Source: Escherichia phage vB_EcoM_G2540-3
Sequence record: MK327944.1
Direction: 5' to 3' (one strand)
DNA length: 64,000 nt
Position numbers and translations under genes: made by a program. Shown here piece by piece: positions 1 to 63,199 of this stretch. Numbering within the stretch: position 1 is the stretch's first letter; each line of letters begins with the position of its first letter. The notes under the pieces were generated by a model that was not told the origin of the DNA, ran no database searches, and was given only the letters and a program-made list of their open reading frames with translations.

Positions 1-2178
1 TTAGGCCGCAAGGGCCTTCATAGTTTTAGCGATTTGGGAGACTTCATCATCACTTAAAGAGTTGCGATAACCGATGAAGTCGGAAACAATACGGAATTTC
101 TTGGTAAACTCAGCAACCATTTTATCACTGTTTTTTGAAGCATTATTTGATAATACATCAAAAAGATTAGTTACTGTCCAGATGTCATGACCGATGGTAT
201 CTTTTCCACCATTAAAATATACACCGCGCAATGAACTAACTATATTAGCGAGTCGTGTATATTCTTCAGAAACTTCATCTGTACTGAAGTACTTCATCAT
301 AAAATCTAGTTCAGGATACTTGATAATTTTATCAATATATCGTTGAGCTGAACTTGAATAACCTACGTACTTATCATAATCTACATCATCAAAAGCATCT
401 ACATATAAATCACGCAGAGTTTCAAAAATACATTGGCACTGACCGAGTTCTTTTACCTTTTTCTGCAAAAGCGGACGAATAACATAAAACTCATTAATGC
501 CAATAAGATTAGCCATACGAATCAAAATATTCATAGATGGATGACAAAGAGATGTAGTACCATCCATAGAGAAAATATCAGAACGATGCATATACGCTAC
601 ATACCCAGTAATTTCATCTGCTTCTGATGTGAGCGTAAATAATTCCTCTTTTTCCCAGCGCCCGTCTTTAATTTCAAACTTAAATGCTGTAGCAGCTTTA
701 GGACGAGGAGCTTTACTTTTAACTACCTTTGGAATATAGCTTTTAACTAAAGCTTCAATTTCTGACAAATAATGAATGTTAACTTCATCACTTTCAAACA
801 TCGCCATAATATCAGGAAGCAAATCAATCTGCGATTCTACTTCTGGATTAATAAACAGAAGGCGTTCGTTGTGATGAATATTCAAAGTGTTATTAAATTC
901 ACTATCATCTAACGCATGTGCTAATCCACGGACAATATTAACACGATTTTTAATATTATCAATAACGATATTAATTTTTGTTGCATTAATACCAAACAGA
1001 CGATAACTTGATGCAACGGCTGAAGTTTCATGACTTTGCTTAATGCGCTTCAGTCGAGGGTCAAGATTTACTTCATACACAACTCCTGCATTGCATAACT
1101 TACTGTCAGGTTCAAACATGCTCTGCATCTTTTTATATGACAGATTTTTAGTCGTAAATTTGACTGAATTACTAATCATATAATCTCGAGCAGAATACCC
1201 CATCTTCATCAATTCACGATATGTATGACGGGGAGATGTGGATTCTTTAAATCGTTTTACATCTTCATTAAATGCTTTCTCACTGAGTTCTTTAACTCGT
1301 TCAATAATATTTTTACGAGTACGATCATCCAGTGAAAGAGCCTCGCGAGATGGAGCAATATCAAGTGAACCCATTGGAAACTTAATGTAATTCACTTCAT
1401 TGCGAATGCTTAGCCAGTTACGGTCTCTAATAACACCATCGATAGGATAAACAATACCGCCATAGATAGCATATAATCCACCACGATCAGGCCAGTATCT
1501 TTCTGGATTTACACCGTAATAGTCATTAAAATCCGGAAAATAATCAATTTCGCGGTCAAGACCATTAATGATAGCCAAATCTTTGAATGGTCGCATGATA
1601 TAAGAAACTTCATAAGCAAAGTTTCTAAAGTCTTTTTCTTCAACTGGAACTACGATTTCAATACCAGTTTTATCATCTGGACCCATTTCTTTTACGAATG
1701 TAGGTTTAATCTGCGGACCGTCACCATCCATGTAAGCTACATAACCACGAATTTCGCCTTTATGATATGAAGTAATACTAAATGTATCAGTATAACTAAA
1801 CGGAGATTTAGAACCTAAACCAAATCCACCAATGAAATCGTTAGATTCAGCCTTAGATGAACTGAAGTATGAATTATACAACCCAGGAGAATTATCATCA
1901 CCCTGAATATCAAAATCGCTCATACCCGGACCAAAATCTCGACAAACAAATCGCGGATCTAATCGTCCTGGAACTTGTATGATAAATTTTTCAGGATTTC
2001 CATTAAGTGCATGGGCATCAATCATATTAGTAATTAATTCACGGACTACTGCACGAATCTTGTTTGTATACAAATCAGATGACAGAATTTTAAATACTTT
2101 AGGAGATGCTGTGATGCTAAATGCTTTTGATTTAGAACCATTGCCAAGAATTGTTTCTTTTTCAGTGGTGATAATCAT
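1..2178 (-). CDS. rIIA: rIIA protein, 725 aa (rapid-lysis / Rex-exclusion locus; N-terminal GHKL-type ATPase-like region)
   Basis: Complete 725-aa ORF with stop at 1-3; length and position beside rIIA.1 and gene 39 match T4 rIIA; N-box-like motif [11 protein letters not shown]. Confidence 0.85.
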
Positions 2179-2188
2179 AATTTCCTCA

Positions 2189-2392
2189 TTAATTCATATT
2201 ACGCTTAATAACTTCAGCAACTTCTAGTAATTCATCTTTAGTTGCAGTGTCGGATTGAATTTTATCTCTAATATCTTTAAAGCGGTTTTTAAATTCTTCG
2301 GCTTCTCCCATATCGAAAAAGCGTTGAATGATTCTATATTCTCGATGAACTGCTTTATCAAAAAGTTCTAAATTTACTTTATATGATTTCAT
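2189..2392 (-). CDS. rIIA.1-like small protein, 67 aa
   Basis: Small ORF immediately upstream of rIIA, in the position of T4 rIIA.1; early promoter directly upstream. Confidence 0.55.
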
Positions 2393-2417
2393 TTCAATAT
2401 CCTCATTTGCCCAATTA

Positions 2418-2447
2418 ATTATACCACATCCTTGTGGTAAAGTAAAC
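2418..2447 (-). promoter_or_regulatory. T4-type early promoter (before rIIA.1 and rIIA)
   Basis: Minus strand GTTTAC, 18-nt spacer, TGGTATAAT. Confidence 0.65.
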
Positions 2448-4267
2448 TACTGGCTCATCCATTCTTTACGAAGGTCAGCATTATCTCCCATGAGCATTTC
2501 AAAAAGCTCTTTCCAGTTCTCAGGAAGTTTAACAACATCATATACTGGATTTTGAATCATCTCACGATATTCAGATTTTTCCAAAGAGCCAAGTCCTTTA
2601 ATATAACGGATGCTATGTTTAGGTAGAGCATCTTTAGCACTCTCATATTCAGCGACTGTATAAAACCATTCTTGTTTTTTACCAATCTGTGCGATGATTA
2701 CAGGAGTTTTGACAAAGCGAATTCGTCCTTGCTCAAACAGTTCTGGCCAATTACTAAAAAATCCAAGCAGAGAAGGATAAATGCTTCCTAGACCATCATG
2801 GTCAGCATCAGTCATAATAGCAATATTATGATAATTCAAGTTTTCAGCTTTTTCACCGAGAACTAATCCAGTGATTGCGCAAATATCAAACAGTTCTTTG
2901 TTTTTAAGCATGTCAGCATATGACATACCCCAACTGTTGAGAACTTTACCACGTAATGGATAACCACCGTGAAGTTCTTTATCACGAACATCAATAAGAT
3001 ATCCGATAGCCGAATCACCCTCAGTCAAGAAAAGAGTAGTATCAGCATCTTTACCACAAAGATTCGCTTTAATATGTTTATGAACCTTAGCTTTAGAAGC
3101 CTTTTTAGCTGCTTTAGTTTCTGCTGCTTTTTCTGCCGCTAATTTACGAGCCAAAGCAGCTTCAATAATCGGCATTAGAATTGCTTCATTATTTAGAATA
3201 GCACGTGAAATCTTTTTAGCATCAAGTTGAATATGACTACGGATTTCACCAAATGGAGAAGTCAAACGCTCTTTAGTTTGAGAATCAAATCGCATGTTTT
3301 TCATATCACGGACAAACATAACGATAGTCAAACATTCTTTAACGCGTGCTTTAGTCACATCAATTTTGAACTTACGTTTGATTTGTGGAATAAGGTCTTC
3401 ACAAATATCATCCATAACACAGTCAATGTGATGGCCACCATTCTTAGTGTGAATGTTATTCACATAAGTTAATTGACGAAAACCATCCGGTGAACGACCA
3501 ACCGCAATAGAGCAATTTTCTTGTTCTTGAACGATAGCATGCTCATCATATTGGCGTGCATATTTCTTAAAATTGCCCTGAACCTTTTTACCATTAAAGG
3601 TAAATTGAATATCAGGATAAACTACTGCAAGTGTCTGGAGACGATCTAGTGTAATGTCAAGATAAACTTGGGACAGCTCATTAGTTTCAAATGACATAAA
3701 ATCAGGAATGAAAGTAACGCGAGTTCCTTTCCATTTTCCTGGAATAGTTTCCCATGATTTATTTTCCATGCCATTTGAACAACGAACTACAATATTATTT
3801 TGACCATCACCAGTTTCACCGACAAACATCACAGAAAAAATGTTTGTCAAACTAGAACCAACACCATTCATACCACCGGTGACGCGTTCTTTATCATCAC
3901 CGAAGTTACCACCTGCTTTTGGAATAGTCCAGGCAGCAACAGGACCAGGAATTTCTTCACCAGTAGGTGTTTTGACCATCGCTTGTGGAATACCGCGACC
4001 GTTATCTTCAACTGTTACTTGATTGTTTTTAATAGTAATATTAATTTTATTTGCGAATTTAAACTTAGTACGAATACCTTCATCTACTGAGTTATCGATA
4101 ATTTCATCAATAAGCTTAACAAGACCAGGTACATACTGAACACTTTCCCATTTACCAAACAGAAAGCGCTCATGCATTTCATTAGCAGAAGAGCCAATAT
4201 ACATGCCGCTACGCTTTTTGATATGTTCAATATCGCTCAGAATTTTAATTTCATTCTTAATCATCAC
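2447..4267 (-). CDS. 39: DNA topoisomerase II large subunit gp39 (GyrB-like ATPase) with gp60-equivalent region fused, 606 aa
   Basis: GHKL ATPase motifs (IIDNSVDEG, EDNGRGIP) and TOPRIM-like region; a single 606-aa ORF equals T4 gp39 plus gp60, as in T2/T6. Confidence 0.9.
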   Translation of the reverse strand: MMIKNEIKILSDIEHIKKRSGMYIGSSANEMHERFLFGKWESVQYVPGLVKLIDEIIDNSVDEGIRTKFKFANKINITIKNNQVTVEDNGRGIPQAMVKTPTGEEIPGPVAAWTIPKAGGNFGDDKERVTGGMNGVGSSLTNIFSVMFVGETGDGQNNIVVRCSNGMENKSWETIPGKWKGTRVTFIPDFMSFETNELSQVYLDITLDRLQTLAVVYPDIQFTFNGKKVQGNFKKYARQYDEHAIVQEQENCSIAVGRSPDGFRQLTYVNNIHTKNGGHHIDCVMDDICEDLIPQIKRKFKIDVTKARVKECLTIVMFVRDMKNMRFDSQTKERLTSPFGEIRSHIQLDAKKISRAILNNEAILMPIIEAALARKLAAEKAAETKAAKKASKAKVHKHIKANLCGKDADTTLFLTEGDSAIGYLIDVRDKELHGGYPLRGKVLNSWGMSYADMLKNKELFDICAITGLVLGEKAENLNYHNIAIMTDADHDGLGSIYPSLLGFFSNWPELFEQGRIRFVKTPVIIAQIGKKQEWFYTVAEYESAKDALPKHSIRYIKGLGSLEKSEYREMIQNPVYDVVKLPENWKELFEMLMGDNADLRKEWMSQ

Positions 4268-4973: not shown

Positions 4974-5150
4974 TTACCCTTTAAGTAAGTCGTAAAATCC
5001 GCCATTCACATGCTTAGGGGCAGAGACTAACCGAATAGCAATCCGATGACAATCAGGACATACATCAGTATCTCTTTCAGAAATTTTCTTGATTTTTTCG
5101 TATTCTTTTGCGCAGTCTTTTGATTGACATTTATAATCATAAAGCGGCAT
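4974..5150 (-). CDS. FmdB-type zinc-ribbon small protein, 58 aa (below ORF-track cutoff)
   Basis: MPLYDYKCQSKDC...CPDCHR pattern; RBS AAGGAA 5 nt before ATG at 5150; fills the gap between flanking genes. Confidence 0.5.
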   Translation of the reverse strand: MPLYDYKCQSKDCAKEYEKIKKISERDTDVCPDCHRIAIRLVSAPKHVNGGFYDLLKG

Positions 5151-5152
5151 AA

Positions 5153-5566
5153 TTATTCCTTAAAGTGAGCTTTCAACATCTGATACAAGGACCATGCCTG
5201 TTCATCATTTTCAATAGTAACTTTCATTACAGGGAATTTAGATTGATCAGTTATCGGTGCAGATTCTTCCTGCTCTTCAGCTGCCTGGTATGGATTTTCA
5301 ACTTCATTAAAGAATTCAGCTTCATTCGATGAAAGCCAAATAAAATCTTCATCCAAAATATCTTTACCAGAAGATAGTACTAAATTTCCAGCAAATGACA
5401 TAATTTTAATAGGACGCCCAAGAGCATCCACATCTAAAATTTTAAAAGGATGCATACCTAAACGGCGTGCATAGATTCCGTTATCAGTATGGTCTTTAAT
5501 AAAATTTTCTTGAGCTTGTTTATTTTTAAACTGATACCATTTATTAACTTCAAATTTAATAGCCAT
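5153..5566 (-). CDS. hypothetical early protein, 137 aa (occupies the T4 goF position by synteny)
   Basis: ORF only; the synteny-based name is a guess. Confidence 0.5.
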
Positions 5567-61130: not shown

Positions 61131-61344
61131 ATTTTACTTCCTCACCTGTTCCCAAATCATATTCAACTAAACGAATAGGTTCATGAATGCCATATCCTTG
61201 AACAGAAATTTCTGTCGTAGGATAAATTCCATTAATATCACCCATGTTCCATGCTTCGTTAAATTGCTGTTCGCCTGAATTACTAAACCACTCGGCGAAA
61301 GCATTTAGCACATCTTCAGAACCTTCAATAATTATCTTTGCCAT
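61123..61344 (-). CDS. hypothetical protein, 73 aa
   Basis: ORF only. Confidence 0.45.
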   Translation of the reverse strand: MAKIIIEGSEDVLNAFAEWFSNSGEQQFNEAWNMGDINGIYPTTEISVQGYGIHEPIRLVEYDLGTGEEVKYD

Positions 61345-61706
61345 TACAAACTCTCGGTGAAGGTACGAGCGATAACGTCGCGCTGCTGTTCCGGAGTCAG
61401 AGAGTTAAAGCGAACTGCATAACCGGATACACGGATGGTCAGCTGCGGATATTTTTCCGGATGCTTAACTGCATCTTCCAGAGTTTCACGACGCAGAACG
61501 TTAACGTTCAGGTGTTGACCACCTTCAATTTTAACTGTAGGCTGTTGCTCAATTTCAATTTCACGGGCATGCAAACCATAGAAAATTTCTGGGTCTACAA
61601 AAGAGTCCTCTTTAAAGGTTTTAGAGACAATAATTCGTGCTTGAATACCATCTTCAAAATAAATAGTACCTTTATGTGTGCCTTCAAGAATTTGATATGC
61701 TTTCAT
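61344..61706 (-). CDS. autonomous glycyl-radical cofactor (GrcA/YfiD-like), 120 aa
   Basis: C-terminal [27 protein letters not shown] carries the glycyl-radical RVSGY fingerprint. Confidence 0.75.
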
Positions 61707-61712
61707 ATAACC

Positions 61713-62042
61713 TCAATTAGAAAATAAATTTATCCAAGATTGTTCTTTAATTAAAAATGGCTCAGAATCATATGCCATTAAACTCTGTGTGATTAGTCCT
61801 TTAAAAGGCCCATCAATAAATTCCATGGTAAAATATGGAATTTTATTCATTAGCCGTGCATTAGGAGCCGTGCACAAAACTCTGCATCCTTTGAATACGC
61901 CTTTTTGTAATTTGTATTGCTTGGGATAAAATTCGCTCAAAATGTTATTTTTTGCCAAAATTTCAAAATGATTCACCAATTTATTTTTAATAGTTTTTGG
62001 CGAAAAATAAAGATATTCGAAAAGCTGAGTGTCTGTCATCAT
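61713..62042 (-). CDS. hypothetical protein, about 110 aa
   Basis: Start trimmed to ATG 62042, ATGA-coupled to the upstream gene. Confidence 0.45.
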   Translation of the reverse strand: MMTDTQLFEYLYFSPKTIKNKLVNHFEILAKNNILSEFYPKQYKLQKGVFKGCRVLCTAPNARLMNKIPYFTMEFIDGPFKGLITQSLMAYDSEPFLIKEQSWINLFSN

Positions 62043-62578
62043 TGCATTCCGATTACGAAAAACTGTGGACGAGTAATACCACCAATGCAACATTTAATAT
62101 TACAGCAGCAGTGTACAGTGTCAATATGGACACTATAAATCTTATCCATATCAGGAGATTTGACAGGCTCATCAATTATATACAAAATTCGCGAAAGCGA
62201 TAAACCTCTGAACTTGCTTCCTTTATTACCAATAAAACTGCGCACAGAATCAGTAAATAAACGAAAACGTATATCATCATTAGAATAACGCGAAAATTCC
62301 TTTTTAATATTATCTGCGGAAATTTTAGCGTAAGCTGAAGTATTAGAAAGAACAATAACTGTTCCACCGTCATACAACCAATTAGCGGCAAAATTAGTTA
62401 CTGCAGTTGATTTACCAGATTGACGCCCACCATCTAGTCGAAGTGTACAATACTGTTTAAGTAAGTCTTCAAATGGCGGGATATATTCGTTTTTACAAAT
62501 TTCTTCTACTCTAGCATCAGAATGGTGTGTAAAAGCATTCATCAGGGATAGATAAGGACCAGTTAAAAATGTTCTCAT
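62039..62578 (-). CDS. small P-loop NTPase, about 180 aa
   Basis: Walker A GGRQSGKST and Walker B ILYIIDEP; start trimmed to ATG 62578. Confidence 0.5.
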   Translation of the reverse strand: MRTFLTGPYLSLMNAFTHHSDARVEEICKNEYIPPFEDLLKQYCTLRLDGGRQSGKSTAVTNFAANWLYDGGTVIVLSNTSAYAKISADNIKKEFSRYSNDDIRFRLFTDSVRSFIGNKGSKFRGLSLSRILYIIDEPVKSPDMDKIYSVHIDTVHCCCNIKCCIGGITRPQFFVIGMQ

Positions 62579-62723
62579 TTTGTTCTCTCTAGGTTTGGGC
62601 CATTCCATGGCGCATGAATTGTCCATTTCTGTATTTACCCATTACCGCACTTGGGCTCGACCTTATTACAGGTTGGCGGGAATCCCTCACAGAATCATGA
62701 GGTCCAGGTTATTCCCATGTTAT

Positions 62724-63140
62724 TTAAATGTAAATATTTTTGCCGTAATACTTATACCAGTGTGGCTTCATTAAAATTTTTTCATCGAGTCGTTGTTGAC
62801 TCAACTTAATAGCTGATTTGCATGGATTATAATCATTTTTCCATTCTACTGGAATATCGCTGATGTCAGGAACTTCAGTATCTTTTATACTGAACCCGCG
62901 TTTTAAGCATTCCGTTATAATGTCCGATTGACGCTTTCGCAAAAATTCTAACTTATCGTAAAAGAAAGTAACATGACCAGAACCTAAAATAAATTTAGAA
63001 GATATTTTAAAATCTTTAACGCGCTTACCGTTTGCCACATGCTTACGAACTATACCAAAAACACGCGGCAATTCACGGTATTCTGCGATTAAATGTTGAT
63101 CAGCAAGTTCAGATACTAAAGTCAAATTAATACGAGTCAT
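62724..63140 (-). CDS. denV: endonuclease V (DenV) pyrimidine-dimer DNA glycosylase, 138 aa
   Basis: 138 aa; N-terminal [27 protein letters not shown] matches the DenV family. Confidence 0.9.
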
Positions 63141-63165
63141 TTTATCCCTCCAAGTAACTGTGAAT

Positions 63166-63195
63166 ATACTATCACAATTCTAGGAGAAAGTAAAC
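63166..63195 (-). promoter_or_regulatory. T4-type early promoter (denV)
   Basis: Minus strand GTTTAC, 18 nt, TAGTAT. Confidence 0.55.
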
Positions 63196-63199
63196 AACT

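Follow-up and report, generated by a model that had tools for sequence, protein, structure and literature searches.

The window analysed here is a 64,000-nt stretch of Escherichia phage vB_EcoM_G2540-3 (sequence record MK327944.1). It belongs to a Tequatrovirus, and the 501 nt around the segment of interest are 100% identical to those of phages Pinarejo, HP3, DalCa and G9062. Read along the minus strand, the locus consists of e, denV, a 145-nt gap and a vs.8-like P-loop gene, in this order, with the following features:

63694-63200, minus strand: e (lysozyme)
63166-63194, minus strand: T4-type early-promoter-like site (TTTACT at 63194-63189, a 17-nt spacer, and TAGTAT at 63171-63166)
62724-63140, minus strand: denV (endonuclease V), the gene upstream of the element
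62579-62723, minus strand: the 145-nt denV-vs.8 intercistronic element, composed of a 5' hairpin domain, a core closed by helix P1, and the vs.8 leader
62039-62578, minus strand: vs.8-like P-loop gene (179 aa), the homologue of T4 Vs.8

Vs.8 resembles a terminase ATPase, and it is reported to be toxic if co-expressed with the immune sensor EcAvs2 (2026 preprint, 10.64898/2026.04.30.721860). Farther downstream, vs.3 codes for the anti-Thoeris sponge TadIV-1 (PMC13243611). Counter-defence functions are encoded in the vs region. In T4 the gene order is e-ipIII-ipII-denV, and in the window both ipII and ipIII are absent between e and denV. The C-terminus of DenV reads ...YGKNIYI* in the window and ...YGKAIYA* in T4. 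The last denV codons of the window, TATTTACATTTAAATAA (62724-62745), resemble the intergenic sequence upstream of the element in two relatives (L008 and L010), pointing to a recombination junction within the end of denV.

The consensus of T4-type early promoters is TTTACW-N17-TAYWAT (PST/T4; PMC4122927), and the site located between e and denV fits it at 11 of 12 positions. This site went unreported in a generic sigma-70 scan because only 8 of its 12 positions match TTGACA/TATAAT. No terminator-like site was detected by the scan between denV and vs.8. Similarly, neither a terminator-like nor a generic promoter-like site was found on the minus strand of 62579-62723, or in the T4 homologue of this segment. 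Since an early-promoter-like site precedes denV and no terminator intervenes, the element most likely lies within an early transcript that runs from denV through the element into vs.8.

The original prediction described the gap as a GC-enriched, structured and non-coding leader. Its GC content is indeed higher than that of its surroundings (46.2%, compared with 34.4% for the whole window, 33.6% for denV and 35.2% for vs.8), and only 0.56% of the 145-nt windows are at least as GC-rich. The GC maximum among such stretches, 51.7%, falls in the vs.6 homologue (61344-61706, minus strand), which codes for a GrcA/YfiD-like glycyl-radical cofactor with the motif RVSGYAVRF. The folding energy (MFE) of the 145 nt was not better than that of shuffled sequences (z = +0.57); thermodynamics alone would not flag the gap as structured, and the case from a single sequence is weak. 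The nested inverted repeats were found on the minus strand exactly where they had been placed, GGGAAU/AUUCCC enclosing CCUCA/UGAGG, and they make up a domain at the 5' end of the element:

62678-62716, minus strand: 5' domain, specific to the T4-like lineage
62716-62711 with 62683-62678, minus strand: outer helix, GGGAAU pairing with AUUCCC
62702-62698 with 62689-62685, minus strand: inner hairpin, CCUCA pairing with UGAGG

Both hairpins show compensatory changes among relatives. The outer helix changes from GGGAA/UUCCC to GGGAG/CUCCC in one locus (L009), and the inner hairpin from CCUCA/UGAGG to CCUUA/UAAGG in another (L052). Divergent T4-likes carry an analogous outer helix, AAAGG/CCUUU or AAAGC/GCUUU, at the equivalent position, and in L008 the outer helix is broken. 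The CCAUGG palindrome, which had been listed with the repeats, is present at 62610-62605, but it is incidental: relatives carry CCACGG or CCAAGG at this site. The feature that is kept there is a hairpin, GCCA-NGGAA-UGGC, of whose loop the palindrome is one allele.

The statement that the gap has no plausible ORF on the coding strand needs qualification, in that two frames do exist, but neither is conserved. One is a GTG-initiated ORF:

62589-62690, minus strand: 33-aa GTG ORF, listed as a hypothetical protein in some relatives (Pinarejo, G9062) and judged not to be a gene

In other lineages the frame of this ORF is interrupted or its start codon is missing. The second frame starts at an ATG at 62626 and would lengthen vs.8. 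In T4 itself the gap is counted as protein, since record AF158101 gives vs.8 as 219 aa with a start 27 nt past denV; the old T4 record X04567 also has a 219-aa Vs.8, with alternative starts listed. The first 40 residues of this T4 Vs.8 overlap the RNA element (L013 1185-1304; AF158101 64912-64793; window 62579-62690). A stop-to-stop analysis of 20 distinct sequences revealed that the 219-aa frame is fused to vs.8 in T4 strains only. In the window this frame is closed by a TAG and shifted by 1 nt relative to vs.8, and it is interrupted in L005, L014, L025 and L026. No frame on either strand is open in all 20 sequences; such open stretches as exist are short and vary in extent. Since no frame is conserved across the sequences, the 219-aa form of T4 vs.8 looks over-extended. 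The profile of PHROG 1488, the Vs.8 family, aligns from residue 3 of the short form, and the true start of vs.8 is probably the methionine of MRTFLTG, at window position 62578. That the gap codes for protein, whether as the 40 N-terminal residues of Vs.8 or as a separate 33-aa peptide, has the two T4 records and the annotation of the small ORF in its favor. The restriction of the T4 frame to T4 strains, the start codons missing from several lineages, the beginning of the PHROG profile at the short start and the location of the homologous nucleotides in non-coding tRNA regions of other phages make it extremely unlikely.

A sensitive BLAST search returned 1033 phage records that match the 145-nt element, 556 of them over at least 80% of its length. 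Phages unrelated to T4 also carry positions 44-87 of the RNA, with a match of 93-95%: the rV5-like phage naswa; the ~150-kb phage PsgM04F and its Phapecoctavirus-like relatives; a set of ~47-kb contigs; Pylasvirus KpCHEMY26 and Pylas (Schitoviridae); and small metagenomic contigs. This segment harbors a motif with the following features:

62637-62677, minus strand: core motif with its closing helix, delimited by covariation and by occurrence across families
62674-62640, minus strand: 35-nt core, AACCUGUAAUAAGGUCGAGCCCAAGUGCGGUAAUG
62677-62674 and 62639-62637, minus strand: 5' strand (GCC+A) and 3' strand (GGU) of helix P1
62673-62660, minus strand: P2 hairpin, with ACCU at 62673-62670, the loop GUAAUA, and AGGU at 62663-62660
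62640, minus strand: bulged G (G35)
62630-62684, minus strand: match to covariance model R1 (55 nt, 68 bits, E 1.2e-25)

We took the core as the functional centre of the element because it is the only part common to unrelated phage families. The expectation of a structured RNA was supported, but the centre is this 35-nt core, adjacent to the nested hairpin, and not the hairpin itself. Model R1 finds a single copy of the motif in the 64-kb window.

The core reads, for positions 1-17, A1 A2 C3 C4 U5 G6 U7 A8 A9 N10 A11 A12 G13 G14 U15 C16 N17, and, for positions 18-35, A18 G19 C20 C21 N22 A23 A24 G25 N26 G27 C28 G29 G30 U31 A32 A33 U34 G35. A small hairpin, ACCU-GUAANA-AGGU, lies within it, along with a conserved stretch of 18 nt, most of it unpaired. 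Covariation and invariance were counted in an alignment of 27 distinct 55-mers (alignment A1), in which 27 of the 35 core positions are invariant (26 if the C21 variants found later are counted). Only N10, N17, N22 and N26 vary freely, and they show no mutual covariation. Among the 27 distinct sequences, 91% of the cells are paired, and all five P1 pairs have changed on both sides. The P1 pair that adjoins the core (columns 10-46) occurs as CG in 14 sequences, UA in 7 and GC in 5, and the A1-U34 pair (columns 11-44) as AU in 18, UA in 5, UG in 3 and GC in 1; neither is broken in any of them. The covariation score was 0.28, compared with 0.074 in column shuffles, and none of 500 shuffles reached 0.28; when the partners were slid by 1-3 columns the score was at most 0.094. 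P1, of 4-5 bp, hence varies in sequence from lineage to lineage while its pairing is kept. L056, a phage related to the metagenomic phage L029, has G1-C34 instead of A1-U34.

Two arrangements were considered for the interior of the core. The P2 hairpin shows a compensatory change of A2-U15 to G2-C15 in L034 and L035, and likewise in the degenerate second copy of the motif in L038. RNAalifold proposes another inner fold, with pairs A2-U31, C3-G30, C4-G29, G6-C28 and U7-G27 together with G13-C21, G14-C20 and U15-G19. The P2/P3 inner fold and this alternative fit the pairing counts equally well, and the variants C21 to G (L062-L064) and C21 to A (L069) lose one pair in either of them. Since the two inner folds are equally supported, covariation establishes P1 but not the inner fold. 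Isolated cores fold weakly (-6 to -11 kcal/mol, z near 0), which would fit a structure that owes its stability to tertiary contacts or to a bound partner. A further helix, CUAACCU/AGGUUAG, seen in the phages with arrays of non-coding units (described below), was dropped since, as judged by eye, it is not kept when P1 covaries. The comparison across relatives, which had been proposed as a check, reveals pairing kept by compensatory changes in both nested hairpins and in P1. We conclude that a structured, non-coding RNA is specified by the minus strand of the gap.

The core is more conserved than the gene that follows it. It is 89-100% identical among T4-likes whose Vs.8 proteins are only 37-64% identical, and 31-35 of its 35 positions agree when the window is compared with T4-likes whose vs.8 coding sequences share only 64-72% identity with its own. 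Part of the identity across families may be due to recent horizontal transfer rather than to long-term constraint.

The motif could not be assigned to a known family. An Rfam search had been suggested for the segment; with Rfam 15 (4227 models) no match was obtained within the element even at the permissive threshold of E <=10, whether 1301 nt or the 156 nt alone were submitted, and nothing was found at the motif in the homologous regions of naswa, PsgM04F, KpCHEMY26, L026, L028, L029 and L047. No Rfam match of the tRNA clan coincides with the motif, and ARAGORN found no genes in the window and nothing at the motif in eight other loci. Local alignment of the motif to the rrnB operon, in both senses, gave best scores lower than those of shuffles. 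We also considered the ideas that the P2 loop mimics the anticodon loop of tRNA-Tyr and that the core is a relative of the T-loop or of boxA, and found them unsupported. A description of the motif was not found in the full-text literature, sequence strings included; the coverage of this search was incomplete, and an earlier description is possible.

All T4-like loci have a vs.8 homologue downstream of the motif, as detected by tblastn, usually with 61-76 nt between the motif and its start; the exceptions are L042 (98 nt), L030 (117 nt), L038 (185 nt) and L039 (478 nt). The segment between the motif and vs.8 has its own conserved features:

62579-62639, minus strand: 3' module, the vs.8 leader proper, kept in all T4-like loci, with AUGGAC ahead of the hairpin
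62611-62599, minus strand: hairpin GCCA-UGGAA-UGGC of the 3' module, with GGA in its loop
62589-62585, minus strand: weak Shine-Dalgarno-like GAGAG, the vs.8 ribosome-binding site

Three GGA motifs are conserved on the minus strand of the element: CUGGACC at ~62705, AUGGACA at ~62620, and the UGGAA hairpin loop at 62599-62611. The last of these, shortly before the vs.8 start, resembles a CsrA-type binding hairpin.

Mosigvirus vB_Eco_F27 has a vs.8 gene that is preceded by the 3' module alone; the hairpin domain and the core are absent, and model R1 finds no match anywhere in its vs.8 locus. The sequence in front of this vs.8 is GTTTAC-N17-TAGTAT, a leader ending in ...ACUUGGAGGG that is joined directly to GGGUAAAUACAG..., and then the 3' module. 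The relevant segments are:

L070 840-965: F27 junction locus
63141-63199, minus strand of the window: counterpart of its promoter-proximal part
62579-62639, minus strand of the window: counterpart of its vs.8-proximal part

By alignment, the F27 promoter and leader correspond to the e-denV intergenic sequence of the window, 63194-63141. Because of this shared promoter and leader, F27 looks like the window minus denV, the 5' domain and the core. The junction carries a GGG(A)UAAA microhomology precisely at the 3' edge of P1. In a 177-kb T4-like phage (L038), two tandem copies of the motif lie between denV and vs.8 (5089-5254, minus strand). Of the two, the one distal to vs.8 is canonical (70 bits), and the one that adjoins vs.8 is degenerate (29.6 bits) and shorter in the region after P2. 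The unit with the motif is confined to a few genomes of the Phapecoctavirus-like group, and their relatives match the neighbouring segment only. Since F27 retains just the 3' third of the element as its vs.8 leader, the core is a separable cassette, and the distribution in F27, L038 and the Phapecoctavirus-like phages argues for the 3' module as the vs.8 leader and for the 5' domain plus core as an independent cassette. The description of the gap as a leader of the P-loop gene therefore holds for its 3' third (~62639-62579), but not for the 5' hairpin domain and the core.

These observations bear on whether the whole element could act in cis on vs.8, as a riboswitch or a protein-dependent operator in which the core binds a ligand or a protein. 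The formation of P1 would then alter translation of, or read-through into, vs.8 and the downstream counter-defence genes, such as vs.3 (TadIV-1). The constant position of the motif in T4-likes, at a near-fixed distance from vs.8 even where Vs.8 identity falls to 37%, argues for such a role, as do the aptamer-like architecture of a covarying P1 around invariant loops, the counter-defence functions of the vs region and, in the metagenomic phage L029, an intrinsic terminator past the closing helix. Against it, F27-type Mosigviruses have vs.8 behind an early promoter with the 3' module and no core, and the copy that adjoins vs.8 in L038 is the degenerate one. Furthermore, in naswa a strong promoter-like site separates the motif from the next gene; in the other families the motif is found in tRNA operons, and the sequence fetched around it contains no vs.8; and no alternative pairing that engages the ribosome-binding site was found to be conserved. 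A cis-acting control of vs.8 by the core is therefore conceivable, but we consider it unlikely. The likeness to riboswitch aptamers and orphan riboswitch candidates is one of architecture: the motif has a compact fold closed by P1, near-invariant unpaired nucleotides and weak stand-alone stability, and its closing helix covaries in all five pairs, as in a conserved aptamer. The 5'-UTR position in T4-likes and the terminator downstream in L029 would also fit. It differs from riboswitches in having no Rfam match, no consistent class of downstream gene and sites in tRNA operons, and no expression platform was identified at the motif.

Outside the T4-likes, same-strand tRNA genes lie within about 0.25-1.2 kb of the motif in 7 of 8 loci. 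In naswa the motif occupies a gap between two promoter-like sites, directly upstream of a tRNA cluster; in PsgM04F it is flanked by tRNA-Thr and tRNA-Gly, and in KpCHEMY26 it lies in a 1-kb non-coding stretch behind four tRNAs. In L029, an unclassified metagenomic phage, the motif is located between a promoter-like site and a 13-bp intrinsic terminator, which lies ~60 nt past the closing helix; this arrangement is as expected for an sRNA gene of ~180 nt. The orientation of the motif is always that of local transcription. T4 species 1 and 2, the products of rnaC and rnaD, are phage non-coding RNAs made with tRNAs, and their function is unknown. Like rnaC and rnaD the motif occurs in tRNA operons, but in phages other than T4; in T4-likes, unlike rnaC and rnaD, it lies ~6 kb from the tRNA cluster, and on reading there is no sequence resemblance between them.

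In Pylasvirus, the ~47-kb contigs and the Phapecoctavirus-like phages, arrays of non-coding units are found beside tRNA genes, at these loci:

L014 1369-2371: array
L024-L028: arrays
L047 6100-7500: array
L005 1872-2366: array

The long closing stem of an array unit is formed by a 5' arm, GUGCUCUU(U/A)(U/C)CGUUGUG, and a 3' arm, CACAAC...ACAGGUAAGAGCAYU. In these phages the motif lies inside a stem-closed unit, and the unit of L026 folds with z = -3.3. The motif is present in only one unit per array, and the other units have no Rfam family match. An octamer of the 5' arm, UGCUCUUU, is common to the boxA sites of E. coli rrnB (L071 516 and 2522), and part of the 3' arm is also found in HK620, HK633 and ZCEC13. 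The arrays also give sub-threshold matches to the Rfam family tmRNA_permuted (33.7 bits against a gathering score of 47, E 1.6e-3), at which ARAGORN detected no tmRNA:

L014 1999-2086: sub-threshold tmRNA_permuted match
L047 7252-7339: sub-threshold tmRNA_permuted match
L026 1737-1844: sub-threshold tmRNA_permuted match

Small size, invariant unpaired junction nucleotides and scattered contexts are typical traits of small ribozymes. The motif shares with hammerhead, twister, pistol and hatchet its small size, its conserved junction nucleotides and a scattered occurrence in phages. As a self-cleaving ribozyme or an RNA-processing signal it would split the denV and vs.8 mRNAs in T4-likes, and free units from tRNA or non-coding operons elsewhere; the many invariant unpaired nucleotides at its junction, its contexts, tRNA operons included, and its place inside processed-looking units in the array phages agree with such an activity. 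No covariance model of a small ribozyme matches it, even at E <=10 on the 156 nt alone. Furthermore, since only one unit per array bears the motif, it cannot be a general processing device. We regard a ribozyme or processing signal as improbable.

The distribution could also reflect an element that acts at the DNA level, such as a conserved boundary at which modules are shuffled by recombination, in the manner of a PeSL (promoter-early stem-loop), or a homing endonuclease target, with no RNA function. PeSLs consist of a terminator stem-loop and an early promoter and are present in many copies per genome, at module borders (PMC4122927). The element resembles them in being a short conserved non-coding cassette that borders shuffled modules in hyperplastic regions of T4-like genomes (PMC2839356, PMC4122927). 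The gene upstream of it varies in T4-likes (denV, ip-like and others) while the element and vs.8 stay together; the region is hyperplastic, with the denV end of the window resembling the intergenic sequence of relatives; and the F27 junction falls exactly at the 3' edge of P1. The element, however, has neither a terminator nor a promoter of the PeSL type inside it, is present as a single copy in the 64-kb window, crosses phage families, and encloses an invariant core in a helix that covaries. Where the arms of an inverted repeat covary around an asymmetric core, the pattern is that of an RNA helix, and the orientation of the motif always fits local transcription. A purely DNA-level role is thus very unlikely.

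Searches of cellular genomes indicated that the motif is restricted to phages. A pattern scan of one genome per species across 185,579 bacterial and archaeal species gave one match, which was spurious, and the motif was absent from 5,426 complete E. coli genomes; with no true match in these scans, the motif appears phage-restricted. Several spurious matches from relaxed pattern scans were discarded: L043 and L053 have no P2, L065 and L068 lie inside a 298-aa ORF, and L066 and L067 score too low. The first of these, on a 'Campylobacter sp.' MAG contig, is a chance match to the search pattern.

Taken together, the core is a cassette that occurs in unrelated Enterobacteriaceae phages, can be present in tandem, and can be absent while vs.8 keeps a leader of its own. 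Since 27 of its 35 positions are invariant and mostly unpaired, and no downstream gene is shared among its carriers, a stand-alone binding module is the most likely function. The element RNA would be made early, on a transcript that runs from the T4-type promoter upstream of denV into vs.8. Its invariant unpaired bases may form a specific binding surface for a conserved factor of the host or of host defence, either a protein or a small ligand, and the RNA might act as a stand-alone module (a stable RNA, a decoy or an aptamer), processed out of the transcript or still within it. It would not be a simple hairpin that controls vs.8; the actual vs.8 leader would be the 3' module, whose hairpin with GGA in its loop lies 20-30 nt ahead of the start codon. 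For the combined statement, a stand-alone binding RNA for a conserved host or defence factor, we put the chances at about even.

Phages are known to make RNA decoys against host defence, such as pseudo-ToxI antitoxin mimics and RNA anti-CRISPRs. The motif resembles these by context only, as it is found in counter-defence neighbourhoods (the vs region and tRNA clusters), and it is not known to be similar to a CRISPR repeat or to ToxI. By this analogy, the core RNA could work in trans against host defence, as a decoy or sponge for a conserved factor of enterobacterial immunity or RNA metabolism, a specific proposal that we offer as speculative and rather doubtful. It would then be a bare RNA cassette that spreads among unrelated virulent phages, carried by tRNA or stable-RNA operons in most lineages and by the denV-vs.8 early transcript in T-even phages. 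In that case, what has until now passed for the N-terminus of Vs.8 in T4 would be a functional RNA.

The phage RNA motif described here is new and sharply defined, and in T4 a probable mis-annotation conceals it. Although T4 serves as the reference phage, its record lists the segment as protein, and reading it as RNA would correct the start of vs.8, whose product is now under study as an activator of the Avs2 immune sensor. A candidate functional RNA is thereby added to the early counter-defence region of T-even phages. The core is common to at least five phage lineages and restricted to phages, which points to a horizontally exchanged function at the RNA level in phages of Enterobacteriaceae, and to RNA-level accessory functions that gene-centred annotation misses.

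Two minor observations concern the carriers. In L029 the motif lies behind a lysis cassette with holin-like genes and a T4-lysozyme-like endolysin (1998-3115; 1800-2016). Several INPHARED records labelled as 'Campylobacter phage' (MG065676, phage A116 and similar ones) contain sequence that is 96.7% identical to the rV5-like coliphage naswa; given this identity, these records are probably mislabelled or contaminated.
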